Assembly (NCBI GenBank): GCA_033853355.1
Contig: JAWOLP010000002.1
Span: forward strand, 1 to 50,508
DNA length: 50,508 bases
Reading direction: 5' to 3'
Source of the DNA: Candidatus Micrarchaeia archaeon
GTDB lineage: Archaea > Micrarchaeota > Micrarchaeia > Anstonellales > Bilamarchaeaceae
Positions 15,800 to 29,458 of the stretch are shown here, piece by piece (position 1 is the first letter of the stretch; the number at the start of each line of letters is the position of its first letter). The position numbers and the translations under genes were made by a program. The notes under the pieces are model-generated. The model searched no databases and was not told the DNA's origin. It saw only the letters and a list, made by a program, of their open reading frames with translations.

Positions 15800-15925
15800 C
15801 GCCCCGGGGAAGATTTGAACTTCCGGCCTGCTGATCTCCACCTTTTAGGACAAAGTGGAGCCAAAACTGGCTCTCCATCTCCTAAAGATAACAGTCAGCC
15901 GCTCTACCGACTGAGCTACCGAGGC
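15800..15925 (-). tRNA. tRNA-Asn(GTT) with a 53-nt intron at 37/38 (15836-15888)
   Basis: GCCTCGG/CCGGGGC acceptor, GCTGA-CTGTTA|A-TCAGC anticodon arm, GTTCAAATC T-loop; relaxed BHB; no encoded CCA. Confidence 0.92.
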
Positions 15926-22604: not shown

Positions 22605-23024
22605 ATGGCCATGAAGACCTGCCGTGCAGAAGCGAGCGAGGACAGGATATCGGACGCTTTCCCCCGCATCAAAGGGCCCCAGGCCCCCGACGCGCACCCC
22701 CTCCATGAGAACGTCCTTGCGCTTCCGTCAGCGTCATCGCGCGACTTCCGCACCCTCGGCGAAATGGCGGATTATGTCGACTCCCATGATCCGGAAGGGG
22801 CAAGGACGCTCAAGCACCACAATCTTATCGCGCTCGTGAGCTGTATCGAGCTTTCCGGAAGCGATGAGCGGTCGAAGTCCCTCTACTCGGCTAGGCTCAG
22901 GTGGCGCCTTTCGAAGCTGCCCTCCGCGGCCCTCGGCCTCCTGGAAGAGAAATCGCCCTCGGATATCGTCCGGGCTGCCGCATCCGGCCTGCTCCAGGAG
23001 CGGGATCCTACACGTCGAGTATGA
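22605..23024 (+). CDS. Hypothetical protein
   Basis: ORF ~20 bp after TTTTAAA; no motif. Confidence 0.55.
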   Translation: MAMKTCRAEASEDRISDAFPRIKGPQAPDAHPLHENVLALPSASSRDFRTLGEMADYVDSHDPEGARTLKHHNLIALVSCIELSGSDERSKSLYSARLRWRLSKLPSAALGLLEEKSPSDIVRAAASGLLQERDPTRRV

Positions 23025-23439
23025 CGAACGCCCTCCAGCCGCCTTCCTTCTCCTCGACCTTGAACATGTGCCAGCTGACGGCCTTCACGTCGACTAGCAG
23101 CTCGTGCTTTTTTGGGTCGATGGGCTCGCCTTTGATGCTCGCCCGCAGCTTCAGGCCTTTTCCGCCTTCGCTTATCTTGAGCCTATACTCCCGGAAAAGC
23201 AGGACGTCCGCATCCTTGTAGAATATGAGCTCCTGGAGGAACTTGTGGAGCAGCCTCTCGGCGTCCTTCTCGTCCAGCTCGAACCTCCTCTCCTCCTTCG
23301 CGCTCACGCTGGCGAGGTCCTTGACCTGGGTGTTCATGAGCGCTTCGCCGGCGCTCACGAACATCTCCTCGATGGTCCTGCCGCTGGCCTCGAACGCAAC
23401 GTCCGCTATCGATACATCATCCACGAACCGATAAGGCAT
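23008..23439 (-). CDS. Archease (RtcB activator)
   Basis: YRFVDDVSIADVAFEASG, FLQELIFYKD, DVKAVSWH, AFVILDV. Confidence 0.93.
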   Translation of the reverse strand: MPYRFVDDVSIADVAFEASGRTIEEMFVSAGEALMNTQVKDLASVSAKEERRFELDEKDAERLLHKFLQELIFYKDADVLLFREYRLKISEGGKGLKLRASIKGEPIDPKKHELLVDVKAVSWHMFKVEEKEGGWRAFVILDV

Positions 23440-23621: not shown

Positions 23622-24497
23622 CTATATAATGCACCGCTCCATCAGCTCCCTGACCTCCTCCCTGCGCTTAGACGCCCCCTTGCCTATGAATACGAGCTCG
23701 GTCCTGTAGCAGTCGTACTCCTCGATGGAGTACCTTCCGGCCACGTAGTTGACGAAGAATCCCGCCTCGCTGGTCGCGAAGAAGCCCTTGCACCGATATA
23801 TCTCCGGCGGAAGCGCCTCGATGGCCTCGACCATCCTGTCCCTGTCGAACCTCTCGTCCGACACGAAATCGAAATAATCGAACTCGATCCGATGGGTTTT
23901 GTGGGGGTGGAGGGGCGCGGCGCGCTTCACCCCGAACAGCACGGCCGTATCGAACTCGCACTTCACGGTCTCGATCATGACCGAGCGCGGGTTGAGGCGC
24001 CGGACTCCGGCAGACACGCCCTCCAGCGCCCGCTCGTCGATGAGGTCGATCTTGTTCATCACCAGGATGTCCGCCAGCTCGATCTGCTCGCGGCCGGTAT
24101 GCCCAAGCGACGGGAACCTCACGAGCGAATCGCAGTCGACGACCGTGACGATGGCGTCCAGCCTCACCCCGTCTATGTTGTCGATGACGTCCTGCGCCAG
24201 CGCCGTCGGCTCGGCCACGCCGGTCGTCTCGACGATTATCCATTCAGGCTGCACCTTCTCGAGCATCTCCTTCACTGCCGCCTCGAACTCCCCCGAGAGC
24301 GAGCAGCAGACGCAGCCCCCCGATAGCTCTGCCATCCGGATGTCCTTCCCCTCGATGATGCGGCTGTCTATCGCTATGTCGCCGAACTCGTTCATCAGTA
24401 TCGCGATACGCATCCTGCTCTCGTCGGCTATCCTGCGGAGGAGCGTCGTCTTTCCGGAGCCGAGATAGCCTGTTATGATCGTGACCGGGACAGACAT
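23622..24497 (-). CDS. COG0523/CobW family G3E GTPase (metallochaperone)
   Basis: GYLGSGKTT, NEFG, GCVCC, ETTG, NKID, CobW_C-like tail. Confidence 0.93.
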   Translation of the reverse strand: MSVPVTIITGYLGSGKTTLLRRIADESRMRIAILMNEFGDIAIDSRIIEGKDIRMAELSGGCVCCSLSGEFEAAVKEMLEKVQPEWIIVETTGVAEPTALAQDVIDNIDGVRLDAIVTVVDCDSLVRFPSLGHTGREQIELADILVMNKIDLIDERALEGVSAGVRRLNPRSVMIETVKCEFDTAVLFGVKRAAPLHPHKTHRIEFDYFDFVSDERFDRDRMVEAIEALPPEIYRCKGFFATSEAGFFVNYVAGRYSIEEYDCYRTELVFIGKGASKRREEVRELMERCII

Positions 24498-24649
24498 GCG
24501 TTTAATGGACAGGGAAACGGTTAAATCGTTTGGGGGTAAATGGCGGAGGCGCCGGATGCTCTCAAACCGCCGCCGGCTCCTAGCCTATCCGCTTTCCGTG
24601 GAAGCGGGGCACCGAAGACGAGCGCGTGCCGGCGCAAAGCAGGGGCCGA

Positions 24650-25702
24650 TTAACCCGGCTCATCGGTTCCCCCGTCCCATCCCATCTCTGCGAGCTTCCT
24701 GCGCAGCCGCTCGAGGCTCTCGTTCTCTATCTGCCTCACCCTCTCGCGGGAAAGATCGTATCCCTTGCCGACCTCCTGGAGCGTGTGCTCCGCCCCGTCG
24801 AAGCCGAACCTCTTTATCATGATATCCTTGGCCCTCGGGCCGAGCGTGGCGAGGAGCCGCTGCACGACCGCCTTCCGCTCCGAGGCTGAATACAGCTCCT
24901 CGGAGCTTTCGGCATACCTGTCGGGGAGCGTCCCCATCCTGTCCTGCTCATCATCTTCATCCTGCCTCCACCGGACCTCCTCCATCGCGGCCATGTCTCT
25001 GATCGCGGCGACTTTCTTGGGTTTCAGGCCGGTCCCTTCCGCTATCTCCTCATCGGTGGCCGCCCTTCCGTTCTTGGCCCGGAATTCGGCGCTGAACATG
25101 TGCACCTTCTTTGCAAGCTCCTCCATATGCACCGGCACCCTCACGGTCCGGTCCTGGTCGGCCATGGCCCTCTGCATGTAGCTCCTTATCCACCAGGTGG
25201 CATACGTCGAGAACTTGTATCCTTTCCTGTAATCGAACTTCTCCATCGCCTTCTCGCTCATGCCGCGGTTCCCTTCCTGGACCAGGTCGTTGTATGTCAA
25301 GTGCCGGAGCGCCCTTCCCCGGCACATCCTGCCGGCCATCTTGTGCACCATTCCCTGGTTCGACTTCACGACCACGCTCCTGATAAGGCGCCTCTGGGAC
25401 TCGTGAGCGGCGATCTCTTCCTGGATCTGTTCCATCGGCTGCCCATTTCCCTCCTTCGCCATCTTCCGGAGGCTCCTGAGCTCCTTGCCTATCTTCCCGT
25501 ACAATCTGAATATCCAGGCTTCCTCCTCTCGCTCCAGGGGCCTTTGCCTCCTAGCCGAGAGGGCGTTCAGCCTCGAGGAATCGCCGGGGGTGGGCGCGGG
25601 CTCCTTCGCTATGTGCTCGCTGGCCGGATCGAGGAGCCTGAAAGGCTGCTTGCCGGTGTCCTGCCTCTTCCCTTCTGCTTCAAGCGGGAGGTTCAGTACC
25701 AT
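24650..25702 (-). CDS. Sigma-70 family (RpoD/RpoS-like) RNA polymerase sigma factor homologue
   Basis: [41 protein letters not shown]…SRERVRQIE. Confidence 0.92.
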
Positions 25703-25724
25703 CGTATCCTATAGACCTGAAATG

Positions 25725-25734
25725 ATTTATAAAT
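25725..25734 (-). promoter_or_regulatory. Archaeal TATA box of the sigma-70-like gene
   Basis: ATTTATAAAT 23-32 bp upstream of the ATG at 25702. Confidence 0.6.
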
Positions 25735-25815
25735 AGTCGCACTTCGTGGGAATGAACGGAACAACCGGACGGCAGGCGGCCTCGCTTTAAATAACGGTCC
25801 CTGGAACTAACCCCC

Positions 25816-26271
25816 ATGCGCAACAAGCTCATCGGGCCGCTGAGGCAGGGGAAGGCGGACCTCACCTTCAGGCTCGGCGCGAGGGACGTCCTGGTGGACC
25901 GGCTCTTCGACCCTCAGGACCAGATGGAGGCGTTCGCCAAAAGCGTCGTCCCGAAGAAGCTCTCGGTGCTCTCGCTCCAGCTCCAGTGCCTCGGATGCCC
26001 TGACGAAGGGATCGAGAGTCTCCTCCGCCACCTGGCCGTGGAGAAGCGGCTGAGCCTTCGCGAGCTCTCGGACTACCTCGACATCGTTGGGACCTGCGTC
26101 GGCAGCCTGCCGCAGCCGCTGGATGTGATCCGGGCAGTGGCGGACAACGCCCTCGGTTTCCAGCCTGACGGCCGGAGCGCTCTGGCTTGCGCCATGCGCC
26201 TTCTCCGCGATTTCGCTTCCATGCCCCCCAGAGACGCCCCGGCGGCACTCGCCGCGCTGAGAGGGAACTAG
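25816..26271 (+). CDS. Hypothetical protein
   Basis: TTTAAATA ~25 bp upstream; genome-typical codons. Confidence 0.65.
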   Translation: MRNKLIGPLRQGKADLTFRLGARDVLVDRLFDPQDQMEAFAKSVVPKKLSVLSLQLQCLGCPDEGIESLLRHLAVEKRLSLRELSDYLDIVGTCVGSLPQPLDVIRAVADNALGFQPDGRSALACAMRLLRDFASMPPRDAPAALAALRGN

Positions 26272-27737
26272 CCCTTGACGTTCCCTATCGGGATGAGCTT
26301 CGCGACCTTCCTGGAGATCCCGGCCTTGTGCGTGGCGTCTATCACGTCGTCGATGTCCTTGTACGCAGCGCCGGCCTCCTCGGCCAGGCCTCCCATCGAA
26401 ACGCTCTTGACGTAGATCCCGCGGCTTTCCATGTCCTTGAGTAGTTTGTCCCCCCTGAACATGCTCTTGGCCCGGGTCCTGGACATCGTCCTCCCGCTCC
26501 CGTGCGCGGTGGTGTAGAACGTCTCGGCGCCGCTCTCGGTCCCGACAAGGAGGTAGGAGCCGGTCTCCATGCTGCCCCCGATGATCACGGGCTGTCCGTC
26601 GTCCCTGTACCTCGGCATCAGCTCCGGCCTCCCCGGGCCGTACGCCGCGGTCGCTCCCTTCCGGTGCACGATCAGCTCCCTCCACTGCCCGTCCACCTTG
26701 TGCTTCTCCAGCGAGGCGCGGTTGTGCGCCACGTCGTATACCTGCTTCATGCCGAGCTTCTCCGCATCGGTCTTGAAGACCTCGGCGAAGGCCTCGCGCA
26801 GGCGGTGGACTATCGTCTGCCGGTTCGCGAAGCTCATGTTCACGCCGCACTTCATGGCCGAGAAATAGTCCTGGCCCTCGGGGGAATTGAAGGGCGCGCA
26901 GGCCAGCTCGCGGTCGAGTATCTTTATTCCGTACTTGCTCTCCATGACGTTGAGGAAGACCTCAAGGTAATCGGTCGCCACCTGGTGTCCGAACCCCCTT
27001 GAGCCGCAGTGGAACATTATGACGACCTGGTCCTCGAACAGGCCCCACTTCTTCGCCAGCGCCTTGTCGATTATGTTCTCGGGCTTCACGTGCTGTATCT
27101 CCAGGTAATGGTTCCCGCTGCCGAGGGTGCCTATCTGGTCCTTCCCGCGGTCGACGGCCTTGGCGCTCACCTTCCGCTGGTCCGCGCCCTCGGCCCTGCC
27201 ACGCATCTCGGTGACCTCGAGGTCGTCGCTCCAGCCGTAGCCCTCCCGGACGCACCACTCGCCCCCCTCCTCGATAACCTTCCTGAAGGTCGCCGAATCG
27301 AGCTTGACGAAGCCCTTGCTTCCCACTCCGGCCGGCACCCGCTCGAAAAGCCGGTTCACCAGCTGCTTCAGGTGCGGCTCCACGTCCCTGACCGTGAGGT
27401 TCGTGAGTATGAGCCTCATGCCGCAGTTGATGTCGAAGCCGATGCCGCCAGGGCTTATCACGCCCTCGTTCGCGTCCATCGCCGCGACGCCGCCGATCGG
27501 GAACCCGTAGCCGCTGTGGCCGTCGGGCATGCAATAGGCGTATTTCACTATCCCCGGGAGGGTGGCGACGTTGGTTATCTGGTCGTACACGTGGAGGTCC
27601 ATCTGGTTCAGCACCGCCTCGCTCGCGTAGATCCTGGCCGGCACCCTCATCCCGTCCTTGAAATCGGTGCCCACCTCCCACACGTAATCGCTGATCTTCT
27701 TGAAATCCGGCTTCCTGAACTCTCGGTTGAAATCCAT
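26268..27737 (-). CDS. rtcB: tRNA-splicing ligase RtcB
   Basis: MPDGHSGYGFPIGG, GFDINCG, GTLGSGNHYLE, H.GSRG.GH, HRKGAT, HGSGR. Confidence 0.97.
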   Translation of the reverse strand: MDFNREFRKPDFKKISDYVWEVGTDFKDGMRVPARIYASEAVLNQMDLHVYDQITNVATLPGIVKYAYCMPDGHSGYGFPIGGVAAMDANEGVISPGGIGFDINCGMRLILTNLTVRDVEPHLKQLVNRLFERVPAGVGSKGFVKLDSATFRKVIEEGGEWCVREGYGWSDDLEVTEMRGRAEGADQRKVSAKAVDRGKDQIGTLGSGNHYLEIQHVKPENIIDKALAKKWGLFEDQVVIMFHCGSRGFGHQVATDYLEVFLNVMESKYGIKILDRELACAPFNSPEGQDYFSAMKCGVNMSFANRQTIVHRLREAFAEVFKTDAEKLGMKQVYDVAHNRASLEKHKVDGQWRELIVHRKGATAAYGPGRPELMPRYRDDGQPVIIGGSMETGSYLLVGTESGAETFYTTAHGSGRTMSRTRAKSMFRGDKLLKDMESRGIYVKSVSMGGLAEEAGAAYKDIDDVIDATHKAGISRKVAKLIPIGNVKG

Positions 27738-27815
27738 TAACGCACCTCGAATCGATAAAACGAGACAACCATAGATAACAGATAATTAAATTAAGCTTGA
27801 TGGAGTAATTTTACC

Positions 27816-28531: not shown

Positions 28532-29458
28532 ATGCGGTACCTGGCGTTCCAGATTCTCCTGCTCTCCCTCTCATTCTCGGCCATAAGCCTCGCCAACATG
28601 ACGGGGAATGTCGATCCGGCCGGGACCGGCCACATCAGGCTCATCGCGGAATTCGCGGGTGCCGAAGGCAGGACTGTAGCCCTAAACATCACCGGCCCGC
28701 TCGACAGCCTCGTGGTCAGGGACCGCAGCGGGCTCGTCCTCTCGCCGAAAGTGGAGGACCAGGACGGCTACACGCTGGTCTTCGTAACGGTGCCGGTGGA
28801 CTACCTCGAGTACGACATCTCCTCGGATTCGTTCACGGACAAGAACGGCTCCGACTGGTCCTTCGACCTCGTCATGGGCTCCTCCGAGAACATCTCGGAC
28901 TTCGAATCGACGATACAGCTCCCAGCCGGGGCTGTCGTCAAGAGCACCAACGGCGCCGTCCAGCAGGCCGGCGACCAGCTGAGCATCTCATGGAGCGGCT
29001 CGGCCCTCGACCCATCCAAGCGCGCCCACCTGAGGGCGGGCTACGAGCTCTCTCCTGACCAGGGCAGCGCCGACCCCACCGCCTTGATGGTCGGAGGGAT
29101 CGCGATCCTTGCGGTCGTGATCATTGCGATAGCGTTTCTATCGGCCCGGAAATCCGCGCGCGATTCGGAGGGGAGGAAGGGACCAGGGGTGGAGGAGGCG
29201 AAGGCGGTCGCGCAACCCGTCTCGCCCCTAGAATCCAACCCTGTCTTCAGGACCCTGGACGAGACCGACAAGGAGATCGTCCGCGAGATCTCCGCCCAGG
29301 GCGGGAAGACGACACAGGCGCACCTCTATCTCCAGACCCACCTCCCCAAAGCGACGCTCTCACGCCGCATGGCCTCTCTGGAAAGCAAGGGCATGATACA
29401 GCGGTCGCAGAAAGGCAACCGGAAGCTCGTCTCCCTGACCGATGTCTTCGGCAAATGA
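28532..29458 (+). CDS. Membrane-anchored winged-HTH transcription regulator (COG2512-like)
   Basis: Signal peptide, beta-rich ectodomain, transmembrane helix, LDETDKEIV…TQ..L…LPKATLSR…LESKG. Confidence 0.85.
   Translation: MRYLAFQILLLSLSFSAISLANMTGNVDPAGTGHIRLIAEFAGAEGRTVALNITGPLDSLVVRDRSGLVLSPKVEDQDGYTLVFVTVPVDYLEYDISSDSFTDKNGSDWSFDLVMGSSENISDFESTIQLPAGAVVKSTNGAVQQAGDQLSISWSGSALDPSKRAHLRAGYELSPDQGSADPTALMVGGIAILAVVIIAIAFLSARKSARDSEGRKGPGVEEAKAVAQPVSPLESNPVFRTLDETDKEIVREISAQGGKTTQAHLYLQTHLPKATLSRRMASLESKGMIQRSQKGNRKLVSLTDVFGK

Follow-up and report, generated by a model that had tools for sequence, protein, structure and literature searches.

A sigma-70 homologue of primary-type bacterial descent behind an archaeal promoter in Micrarchaeota

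The DNA analysed here, 50,508 nucleotides from a Candidatus Micrarchaeia archaeon (assembly GCA_033853355.1, contig JAWOLP010000002.1; the whole stretch is called the window below), encodes on its reverse strand a 350-residue protein of the sigma-70 family (24650..25702). The gene is a long-resident sigma-70 homologue of Micrarchaeota: its ancestor was a primary-type (group 1-like) bacterial sigma, its frame is intact, and its promoter has a canonical archaeal TATA box. The sigma-like family to which it belongs evolves fast and is scattered through the phylum. According to the textbook, sigma factors belong to bacteria, and archaea initiate transcription with TBP and TFB. An earlier note, made from the sequence without database searches, had reported such a homologue in an archaeal genome, and the intact open reading frame (ORF), the Pfam domains of regions 2, 3 and 4, the fold and the archaeal contig bear this out. 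The note's premise that sigma-70 in archaea is unheard of was wrong, as a published passage already describes sigma-70 genes of DPANN archaea (PMC8204110).

Domains, fold and residues of the window sigma

The ORF opens with an ATG and runs uninterrupted. Pfam recognises region 2 (Sigma70_r2, PF04542) at residues 112-186, encoded by 25145..25369 on the reverse strand (E = 6.1e-13, 48.8 bits against a cut-off of 24), region 3 (Sigma70_r3, PF04539) at residues 195-269, 24896..25120 on the same strand (E = 2.7e-6, over the curated cut-off), and region 4 (Sigma70_r4, PF04545) at residues 283-334, 24701..24856, again on the reverse strand (E = 1.9e-14, 53.3 bits against a cut-off of 24.1). The region 2 domain and the region 4 helix-turn-helix that mark the sigma-70 family are both present. 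The region 3 match includes an acidic linker of low model confidence (residues 246-266), region 4 carries the helix-turn-helix motif SRERVRQIE, and the aromatic YATWW motif of region 2 is intact.

An AlphaFold2 model computed from a 78-row alignment has a mean predicted local distance difference test score (pLDDT) of 86.2, which falls to 50-57 at residues 241-260. In a Foldseek search with this model, the best matches were sigmaA chains of bacterial initiation complexes (E = 1.6e-13, probability 1.00), and all of the top 50 were sigma chains of bacterial polymerase complexes or models. The predicted structure has the helical domains sigma2, sigma3 and sigma4 that characterise the family. A sequence search of the PDB likewise ranked the primary sigmas RpoD and SigA best (E about 1e-43), with a weaker match to RpoS (6e-34).

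At the N-terminus, Pfam detected neither region 1.1 (PF03979) nor region 1.2 (PF00140) at E <= 0.01. About 38 residues, mainly of low model confidence (residues 1-31 mostly so), precede the first long helix, which begins at residue 39; the claim of the earlier note that region 1.1 is absent therefore stands. Its claim that region 1.2 is present holds in part: a helical segment similar to region 1.2 is retained, with E61 near-invariant across the archaeal clade described below, but the Pfam domain, which nearly all listed bacterial hits contain, was not detected. The combination of regions 1.1 and 1.2 that marks a group 1 primary sigma was thus not found by Pfam. The protein is matched by NCBIfam models for RpoD, SigA and RpoS, and by MzaA models in their sigma part, with scores far under the curated cut-off of each. 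For the two RpoD equivalog models the score was 187.7 bits, against cut-offs of 354 (TIGR02393) and 555 (NF004208), which leaves the protein outside both.

Six bacterial RpoD rows define 83 invariant positions in the alignment. The window sigma retains 62 of these, and it is the member of its clade that is most like bacterial RpoD. Retention is high in region 2.2 (10/12), region 2.3 (14/15), region 3.0 (6/7) and region 4.2 (14/17), and just three of the eight invariant positions are kept in region 2.1. The motifs quoted earlier could all be found, including the replacement of NLRLV in region 2.1, SYMQ for QAIT in region 2.4, and SRERVRQIE. Changes at invariant positions include R117G, L118M, Q174S and T177Q, the last two of which are the changed positions of region 2.4. 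Because their bacterial counterparts presumably read the upstream end of the -10 element, an altered DNA specificity of the window sigma is likely. Across the clade, about 0.4-0.7 of the bacterial-invariant positions are kept in every region (0.59 in region 2.2 and 0.64 in region 4.2). Two insertions set the clade apart: all 21 clade rows have 1-4 more residues than the bacterial rows in the loop that joins regions 2.1 and 2.2, and an extra residue lies inside region 2.2 in 18 of the 21, with the window sigma included in both counts.

An archaeal contig, a host-type promoter and an old family

The contig is archaeal. The window is the entire contig C2 of a bin (G000) of 1.47 Mb in 74 contigs, which is 76% complete with 4% contamination. 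Rfam finds on it a tRNA with a 54-nucleotide insertion at the canonical intron site (15800-15925, reverse strand), which ARAGORN missed in bacterial mode; this archaeal marker has an anticodon loop that reads GUU and is probably an Asn tRNA. RtcB, whose gene lies upstream of sigma, shares 78-95% identity with proteins listed at NCBI under "Candidatus Micrarchaeota archaeon" and "Candidatus Bilamarchaeum", and the bin holds TBP and two TFB loci. The latter, on contigs C54 (10537-11085) and C55 (12403-12951), have near-identical scores and may be one region assembled twice from strain variants, which would fit the 4% contamination.

Among the 48 contigs of 10 kb or more, C2 ranks ninth in closeness to the mean tetranucleotide profile of the bin, and two 5-kb pieces around the sigma gene lie between the quartiles of 234 pieces taken from other contigs. 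The G+C content at third codon positions (GC3) of the sigma gene is 0.82, compared with 0.835-0.906 in nine neighbouring genes, in agreement with the noted match in codon style. Logan contigs from soil-metagenome runs bridge CobW to sigma (23713-24870, 0 differences) and sigma, orf151 and RtcB (25188-26541, 1 difference); these runs may include the source sample, so that the bridging is a check of the assembly and no independent occurrence. With the archaeal markers and the bin-like composition, they answer the question of taxonomy and continuity that had been raised: the contig is neither chimeric nor bacterial. At 25188-25219, where the DNA encodes invariant residues of region 2.3, contigs of other organisms with loose ends on both sides were attracted in all four runs, and read-based coverage of that spot is therefore not genome-specific.

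The TATA box TTTATAAA that had been noted ahead of the gene is there, at 25726..25733 on the reverse strand, 23 nucleotides before the ATG (-31 to -24). Among 529 ATG-start ORFs of the bin, TATA-like hexamers pile up at -32 to -27, with 151 counts in two bins compared with 3-22 in the other 3-nucleotide bins, and the box of the sigma gene is therefore at the usual promoter position. From this distribution, most genes would seem to be leaderless and to have a standard archaeal box, a pattern that the sigma gene shares.

Directly upstream of the box lies an element, CACGAAGT-GCGACTA (25734..25748, reverse strand), whose CACNAART pattern is common to sigma genes of the clade. The module CACNAART-N6-7-TTTATAA-N22-23-ATG precedes nine of 14 clade sigma genes, and looser variants precede two more. 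The nine genes come from six genomes and two genera and lie at different chromosomal sites; besides the window, loci with the element upstream of sigma genes are L025, L026, L027, L043, L057 and L061. The module is shared though the sigma proteins are only about 25-37% identical to the window sigma, and conserved bases upstream of the box are absent from generic TTTATAA-ATG promoters of the bin (n = 48). A regulon was not found: in 99 genomes the loose form of the pattern gave 23 matches, compared with 20 for the reversed control, and nine of the 23 were the source sigma genes themselves while the other 14 were not upstream of sigma-like ORFs. We read CACNAART as a putative selected cis-element of the sigma genes themselves.

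RNA libraries of a second study yielded contigs that cover parts of the sigma gene (24311-24899, 24507-24763 and 25537-25788) with 99-100% identity. Neither the strand nor the ends nor the level can be read from such contigs, and they may stem from carried-over DNA, so that they serve as a hint of transcription and the uncovered parts are uninformative.

The window protein is alone in its 90% cluster in a collection of 5.8 billion proteins, and a word-indexed search gave bacterial RpoD proteins as the next matches (40-47% identical across some two thirds of the query). An exhaustive HMMER search returned as its top set proteins of about 330-376 residues that align over most of the query length; of ten that were looked up, two have NCBI names that identify them as Micrarchaeota proteins of the sigma-70 family. 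With the window protein as query, relatives were detected in eight of 40 related genomes. Within the order, 34 of 176 genomes contain Pfam region 2 (30 of them over the cut-off), as do 45 of 401 genomes of a phylum sample, in 33 of 155 genera, with controls positive in 10/10 bacterial and 0/4 archaeal genomes. A hidden Markov model built from the first matches identified 40 sigma-like ORFs in 31 stretches, often as tandem pairs or triplets, and a relative whose genome is a single contig carries two sigma genes. Ten relatives were scanned with Pfam: region 4 was present in all ten, region 2 in nine and region 3 in four, and regions 2 and 4 were kept together in nine. A search of genome contigs with the window protein, from which the window's own genome was left out, gave only a region 4 match, in a Burkholderiales metagenome-assembled genome. 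Sigma-like triplets occur in some kin (L055, at G119:C1 4261-11643; also L054 and L056), where one protein of 1661 residues has its sigma part in the middle; no further domains were recognised in the long sigma-like proteins of kin.

In a quick tree of 66 rows, the window sigma groups with archaeal proteins. A more careful IQ-TREE analysis used 55 rows, after the removal of nine archaeal rows with long branches, a duplicate and a single row from the database. A branch with 100/100 support separates 22 rows (all 14 kept archaeal-locus proteins and eight other database hits) from the remaining 33 (all 22 bacterial RpoD hits and 11 other database hits), in a tree whose root is unknown and whose bootstrap had not fully settled. 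Most archaeal end branches measure 0.9-2.2, and 0.3-0.4 for the two closest orthologues, compared with mostly 0.1-0.6 for the bacterial rows. The window sigma thus belongs to a Micrarchaeota sigma-like clade that stands apart from bacterial RpoD and carries the insertions in the loop and in region 2.2.

For G004/G007, the closest pair of orthologues in the clade, the nonsynonymous and synonymous distances are dN = 0.30 and dS = 0.97, a dN/dS of about 0.31, compared with about 0.06 for two neighbouring gene pairs. In the pair formed by the window gene and its G010 counterpart, dS is saturated at 1.38, and the ratio was not used. Selection on the family is purifying but relaxed, or partly diversifying. 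With phylogeny, distribution within the phylum and dN/dS now examined, in line with proposals of the earlier note, the gene proves to be neither a decaying singleton nor a recent transfer, but an old resident. The term "domesticated sigma" used for it is supported by the archaeal contig, the host-type promoter and composition, shared synteny, the archaeal clade and purifying selection.

The variable slot beside RtcB

The sigma gene sits in a backbone that is conserved throughout the genus and reads RtcB, slot, CobW-like GTPase, archease, carbamate kinase. In the window, the RtcB RNA ligase gene (26268..27737, NCBIfam) lies upstream of it, and the genes for the CobW/COG0523-like GTPase (23622..24497; NCBIfam and synteny) and the archease (23008..23439; NCBIfam NF001617 and synteny) lie downstream, all on the reverse strand.

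We took a census of the slot in 18 loci of relatives in which RtcB and CobW can both be seen. In five of these (G022, G016, G087, G023 and G088) RtcB and CobW lie directly next to each other. The slot is filled by sigma in three (G010, G004 with two tandem copies, and G081), by the orf151 family alone in another three (G090, G021 and G006, the closest kin by flanking-gene identity), and by other genes in seven, for example an MFS transporter or a pyridoxal phosphate (PLP)-dependent enzyme; an ORF of 1350 residues is also among the slot contents. In G084, RtcB is followed by sigma at the end of a contig. The space between RtcB and CobW (24498-26267 in the window; loci L024, L027 and L034-L052) is a hotspot of gene turnover in the genus. 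Sigma proteins in the slot are 27-37% identical to the window sigma, whereas the flanking proteins are 44-78% identical. The sigma gene is dispensable and evolves fast, yet it holds its chromosomal place. RtcB is the sole recurrent neighbour of sigma genes (five loci), and neither another conserved partner nor an anti-sigma-like one was found beside them.

The other gene in the slot of the window, orf151 (25816..26271, forward strand), is divergent from the sigma gene and has homologues of 43-48% identity in the slots of G090, G021 and G006. The window and G006 have one copy each, and G090 (L034 4045-4942) and G021 (L035 4026-4934) have tandem pairs; Pfam, PADLOC, PHROG and Atlas gave no lead to a family.

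Upstream of RtcB (27738-27810; compared in 12 kin) there is, unlike in most genes of the bin, a leader of about 45 nucleotides that contains the Shine-Dalgarno-like motif GAGGTG, and a CTTAATTTA box that is conserved. This promoter layout, too, is conserved, across the genus, but between much closer proteins than those whose genes share the sigma module. Two RtcB genes of relatives are irregular. In G089 (L046, C6, 1123-4045) about 1.3 kb of DNA, which may be an intein, interrupts the gene between query residues about 105 and 75-489, and in G004 (L027, C7, 11185-12664) the gene matches in four pieces in different frames and is either broken or mis-assembled. Further upstream, at 28532-29458 on the forward strand, a protein of 308 residues with a C-terminal winged helix-turn-helix gives weak PADLOC matches to CARF/Csa3-type regulators; it is kept beside the backbone in kin.

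Possible functions and known counterparts

We tentatively prefer the reading that the window sigma works in the cell, as an accessory factor in the transcription of the archaeon, and still uses the polymerase as its scaffold. In this capacity it would serve the archaeon's own gene regulation. The surfaces of regions 2 and 4 would read promoter-proximal DNA, and docking on the archaeal RNA polymerase would most likely bring region 2.2 onto the coiled-coil of the Rpo1N clamp, which is homologous to the clamp helices of beta-prime. Those indels of the core-binding face at regions 2.1 and 2.2 by which the clade differs from bacterial RpoD would represent a re-fit to the archaeal polymerase, and the two changed positions of region 2.4 would alter DNA specificity. 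Our preference is based on the retained three-domain layout, core-binding helix and acidic linker, together with these clade indels in the polymerase-binding face. The ten of 12 invariant positions kept in region 2.2, the three domains and the acidic linker of region 3.2 may be taken as hints of polymerase contact. A co-fold of sigma residues 36-195 with residues 1-420 of the archaeal Rpo1N scored 0.00, and we count it neither for nor against such contact. The bolder proposal, that a bacterial sigma has been re-fitted to the archaeal RNA polymerase such that it docks on the Rpo1N clamp and takes part in promoter choice or melting beside TBP and TFB, in a hybrid form of initiation with the paralogues behaving like alternative sigmas, appears unlikely to us.

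The bin contains one gene with Rpb1 domain 1, in a frame of 899 codons, the size of an archaeal Rpo1N, and a bacterial alpha C-terminal domain was not found in it (at 76% completeness). Five other sigma-bearing genomes, one of which is a single contig of 1.57 Mb, have one Rpo1N-type gene each (868-905 codons, 825 in G119), and the alpha C-terminal domain was not found in any of the five, the single-contig genome included. The bacterial core polymerase to which a group 1 sigma is the housekeeping partner was thus not found in the bin or in its five relatives.

Several observations weigh against our preferred reading. In the clade as a whole, region 2.2 keeps its invariant positions to a degree within the range common to all regions, and core-binding residues are therefore not specially protected. 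The gene can be done without, as the closest kin (G090, G021 and G006) have no sigma in the slot and in five other species the slot is empty. The archaeal polymerase is not known to have a docking site for region 4. Within 20 kb around the gene (15-35 kb), promoters of the sigma-70 type with -35 and -10 elements are not enriched (5, compared with 4.2 +/- 1.7 in shuffled sequences). One of the RNA-library contigs reaches 86 nucleotides upstream of the ATG, past the TATA box; if it derives from RNA, it does not fit a leaderless transcript from the TTTATAAA box. Finally, rpoS-annotated genes reported on DPANN viruses (PMC12647753) keep an origin and a use in mobile elements in play.

Several alternatives have to be weighed against an accessory factor, among them the two functions suggested in the earlier note, a stand-alone factor that binds or melts DNA and an effector aimed at the polymerase of a bacterial partner. 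The protein could be a stand-alone DNA-binding regulator, with the helix-turn-helix of region 4, perhaps together with region 2, acting as a repressor or activator that makes no contact with the polymerase, possibly on its own promoter element. Region 1.1, which autoinhibits DNA binding by free sigma, is absent from the window sigma; region 4.2 is the best-kept DNA-reading part, both in the window sigma and in the clade; and a conserved element just upstream of the TATA box in 9-11 of 14 clade sigma genes would suit autoregulation. That bacterial core polymerase was not found in the genomes searched would also agree with such a role. A plain DNA binder would, however, have no need of the whole layout of regions 2, 3 and 4, the acidic linker of region 3.2 and the core-binding helix of region 2.2, all of which are kept, and the promoter element is not enriched beyond the sigma genes relative to its reversed control (23 vs 20 in 99 genomes). 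We consider this explanation rather unlikely but a serious one, with more in its favour than those that follow.

The gene might instead be cargo or a relic of a DPANN mobile element or virus, which would redirect transcription during infection or last only while the element persists. The hypervariable slot (empty in five of 18 loci, with sigma in three, orf151 only in three and other genes in seven), the patchy family (34 of 176 genomes of the order), its quick evolution and its tandem copies would all suit a mobile origin. So would the best PHROG match of the window sigma, which is a phage sigma family, and the rpoS-annotated genes on DPANN viruses, one of them borne by a prophage (PMC12647753). 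At the locus itself, however, integrase, capsid and other viral or defence families were not found, either with PHROGs on four neighbours or with PADLOC on six, where the CARF/Csa3-like helix-turn-helix was the only match. The insert is just one or two genes long, its composition matches the host and its promoter is of the host type. Other sigma loci lie amid ordinary chromosomal genes, and two are syntenic between G105 and G106, kin at the level of genera. A scan of viral contigs with the window protein, which detects close relatives only, found no relative. We judge a mobile origin improbable, yet to be taken seriously.

It is very improbable that the sigma is an effector which is delivered to bacterial neighbours, or released near them, and captures their core RNA polymerase. 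As the most RpoD-like member of its clade (62/83 invariant positions, 10/12 in region 2.2), the window sigma could plausibly bind a bacterial core, and none was found in its own genome. However, genes for secretion, delivery, export or a partner were not seen beside it, and the known hosts of Micrarchaeota are archaea of the Thermoplasmata type, not bacteria. A cytoplasmic three-domain sigma that appears to lack a signal is also an unlikely exported protein, although no signal-peptide prediction was run. An artefact or dead gene (a mis-binned bacterial contig, a chimeric assembly or a decaying pseudogene), which the incompleteness and contamination of the bin and the singleton cluster of the exact protein might suggest, has next to no chance in view of the archaeal markers on the same contig, synteny in four other species, the bridging contigs from public runs, the one-contig relative with two sigma genes, the intact frame, the confident fold model and a family dN/dS below 1.

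An accessory transcription factor of the archaeon thus remains our preferred, if tentative, reading. Intact and selected sigma homologues that have long been present in archaeal chromosomes, with no bacterial polymerase to serve, raise the question of what a sigma can do outside its native machine. Since the sighting of sigma-70 in DPANN is already in the literature, the value of the system lies in the function of the sigma. The window sigma is the least changed from RpoD, which makes it the practical member for expression and for tests on archaeal and bacterial polymerases, and handles for such tests are offered by the constant slot, by the changes in the core-binding face that are peculiar to the clade, and by the promoter element that its sigma genes have in common.

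Compared with bacterial RpoD/SigA, the window sigma has the same fold and the same regions 2, 3 and 4, and it retains most residues that are invariant in regions 2.2, 2.3, 3.0 and 4.2. It differs in the absence of region 1.1, a region 1.2 that Pfam does not detect, scores under the RpoD cut-offs, the changes in regions 2.1 and 2.4 and the indels at regions 2.1 and 2.2. It also differs in its setting, an archaeon in which bacterial core polymerase was not found and among whose close kin the gene is dispensable. In plants, nuclear-encoded plastid sigma factors are another case of a bacterial sigma kept in the genome of another domain; there, however, the bacterial-type plastid polymerase is still present, whereas a bacterial-type polymerase was not found in the genomes examined here.

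By score, the best NCBIfam and PADLOC match of the window sigma is MzaA, the sigma-like component of the MZA anti-phage system (207 and 129 bits); the alignments are limited to the C-terminal sigma part of the MzaA models (positions 457-703 of 726 and 433-657 of 683). We rejected this identity, as the 207 bits compare with a cut-off of 800, the match is confined to the C-terminal third, and PADLOC found no Mza partner on six neighbours.

In the literature that we searched, no functional study of sigma factors from archaea, DPANN or Micrarchaeota was found. A 2025 paper lists two rpoS-annotated genes on DPANN viruses, one of them from a prophage (PMC12647753). By their description there, these genes are likewise of the sigma family and linked to DPANN, whereas the window locus shows no viral genes among the neighbours searched. 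The closest counterparts are the sigma-70 genes that Castelle et al. 2021 describe in DPANN as "particularly prevalent in Woesearchaeota" (fam00359; PMC8204110); in the passage concerned, mis-binning was ruled out, anti-sigma factors were not found and the mechanism was called unclear. Both sets are sigma-70 family genes on verified contigs with no anti-sigma partner, to which our loci add that no conserved partner was seen beside them either. The stress lies on Woesearchaeota there and on Micrarchaeota here, and we set the window sigma beside fam00359 by description only. That sigma-70 occurs in DPANN was thus already known, as were the two Micrarchaeota relatives named by NCBI. What this analysis adds is the Micrarchaeota clade and the indels that mark it, the constant slot in the RtcB operon region, an estimate of selection, a search for a bacterial core that found none, and a promoter element common to sigma genes of the clade; of these, the syntenic slot, the clade indels and the promoter element lie outside what that passage on DPANN sigma-70 covers.

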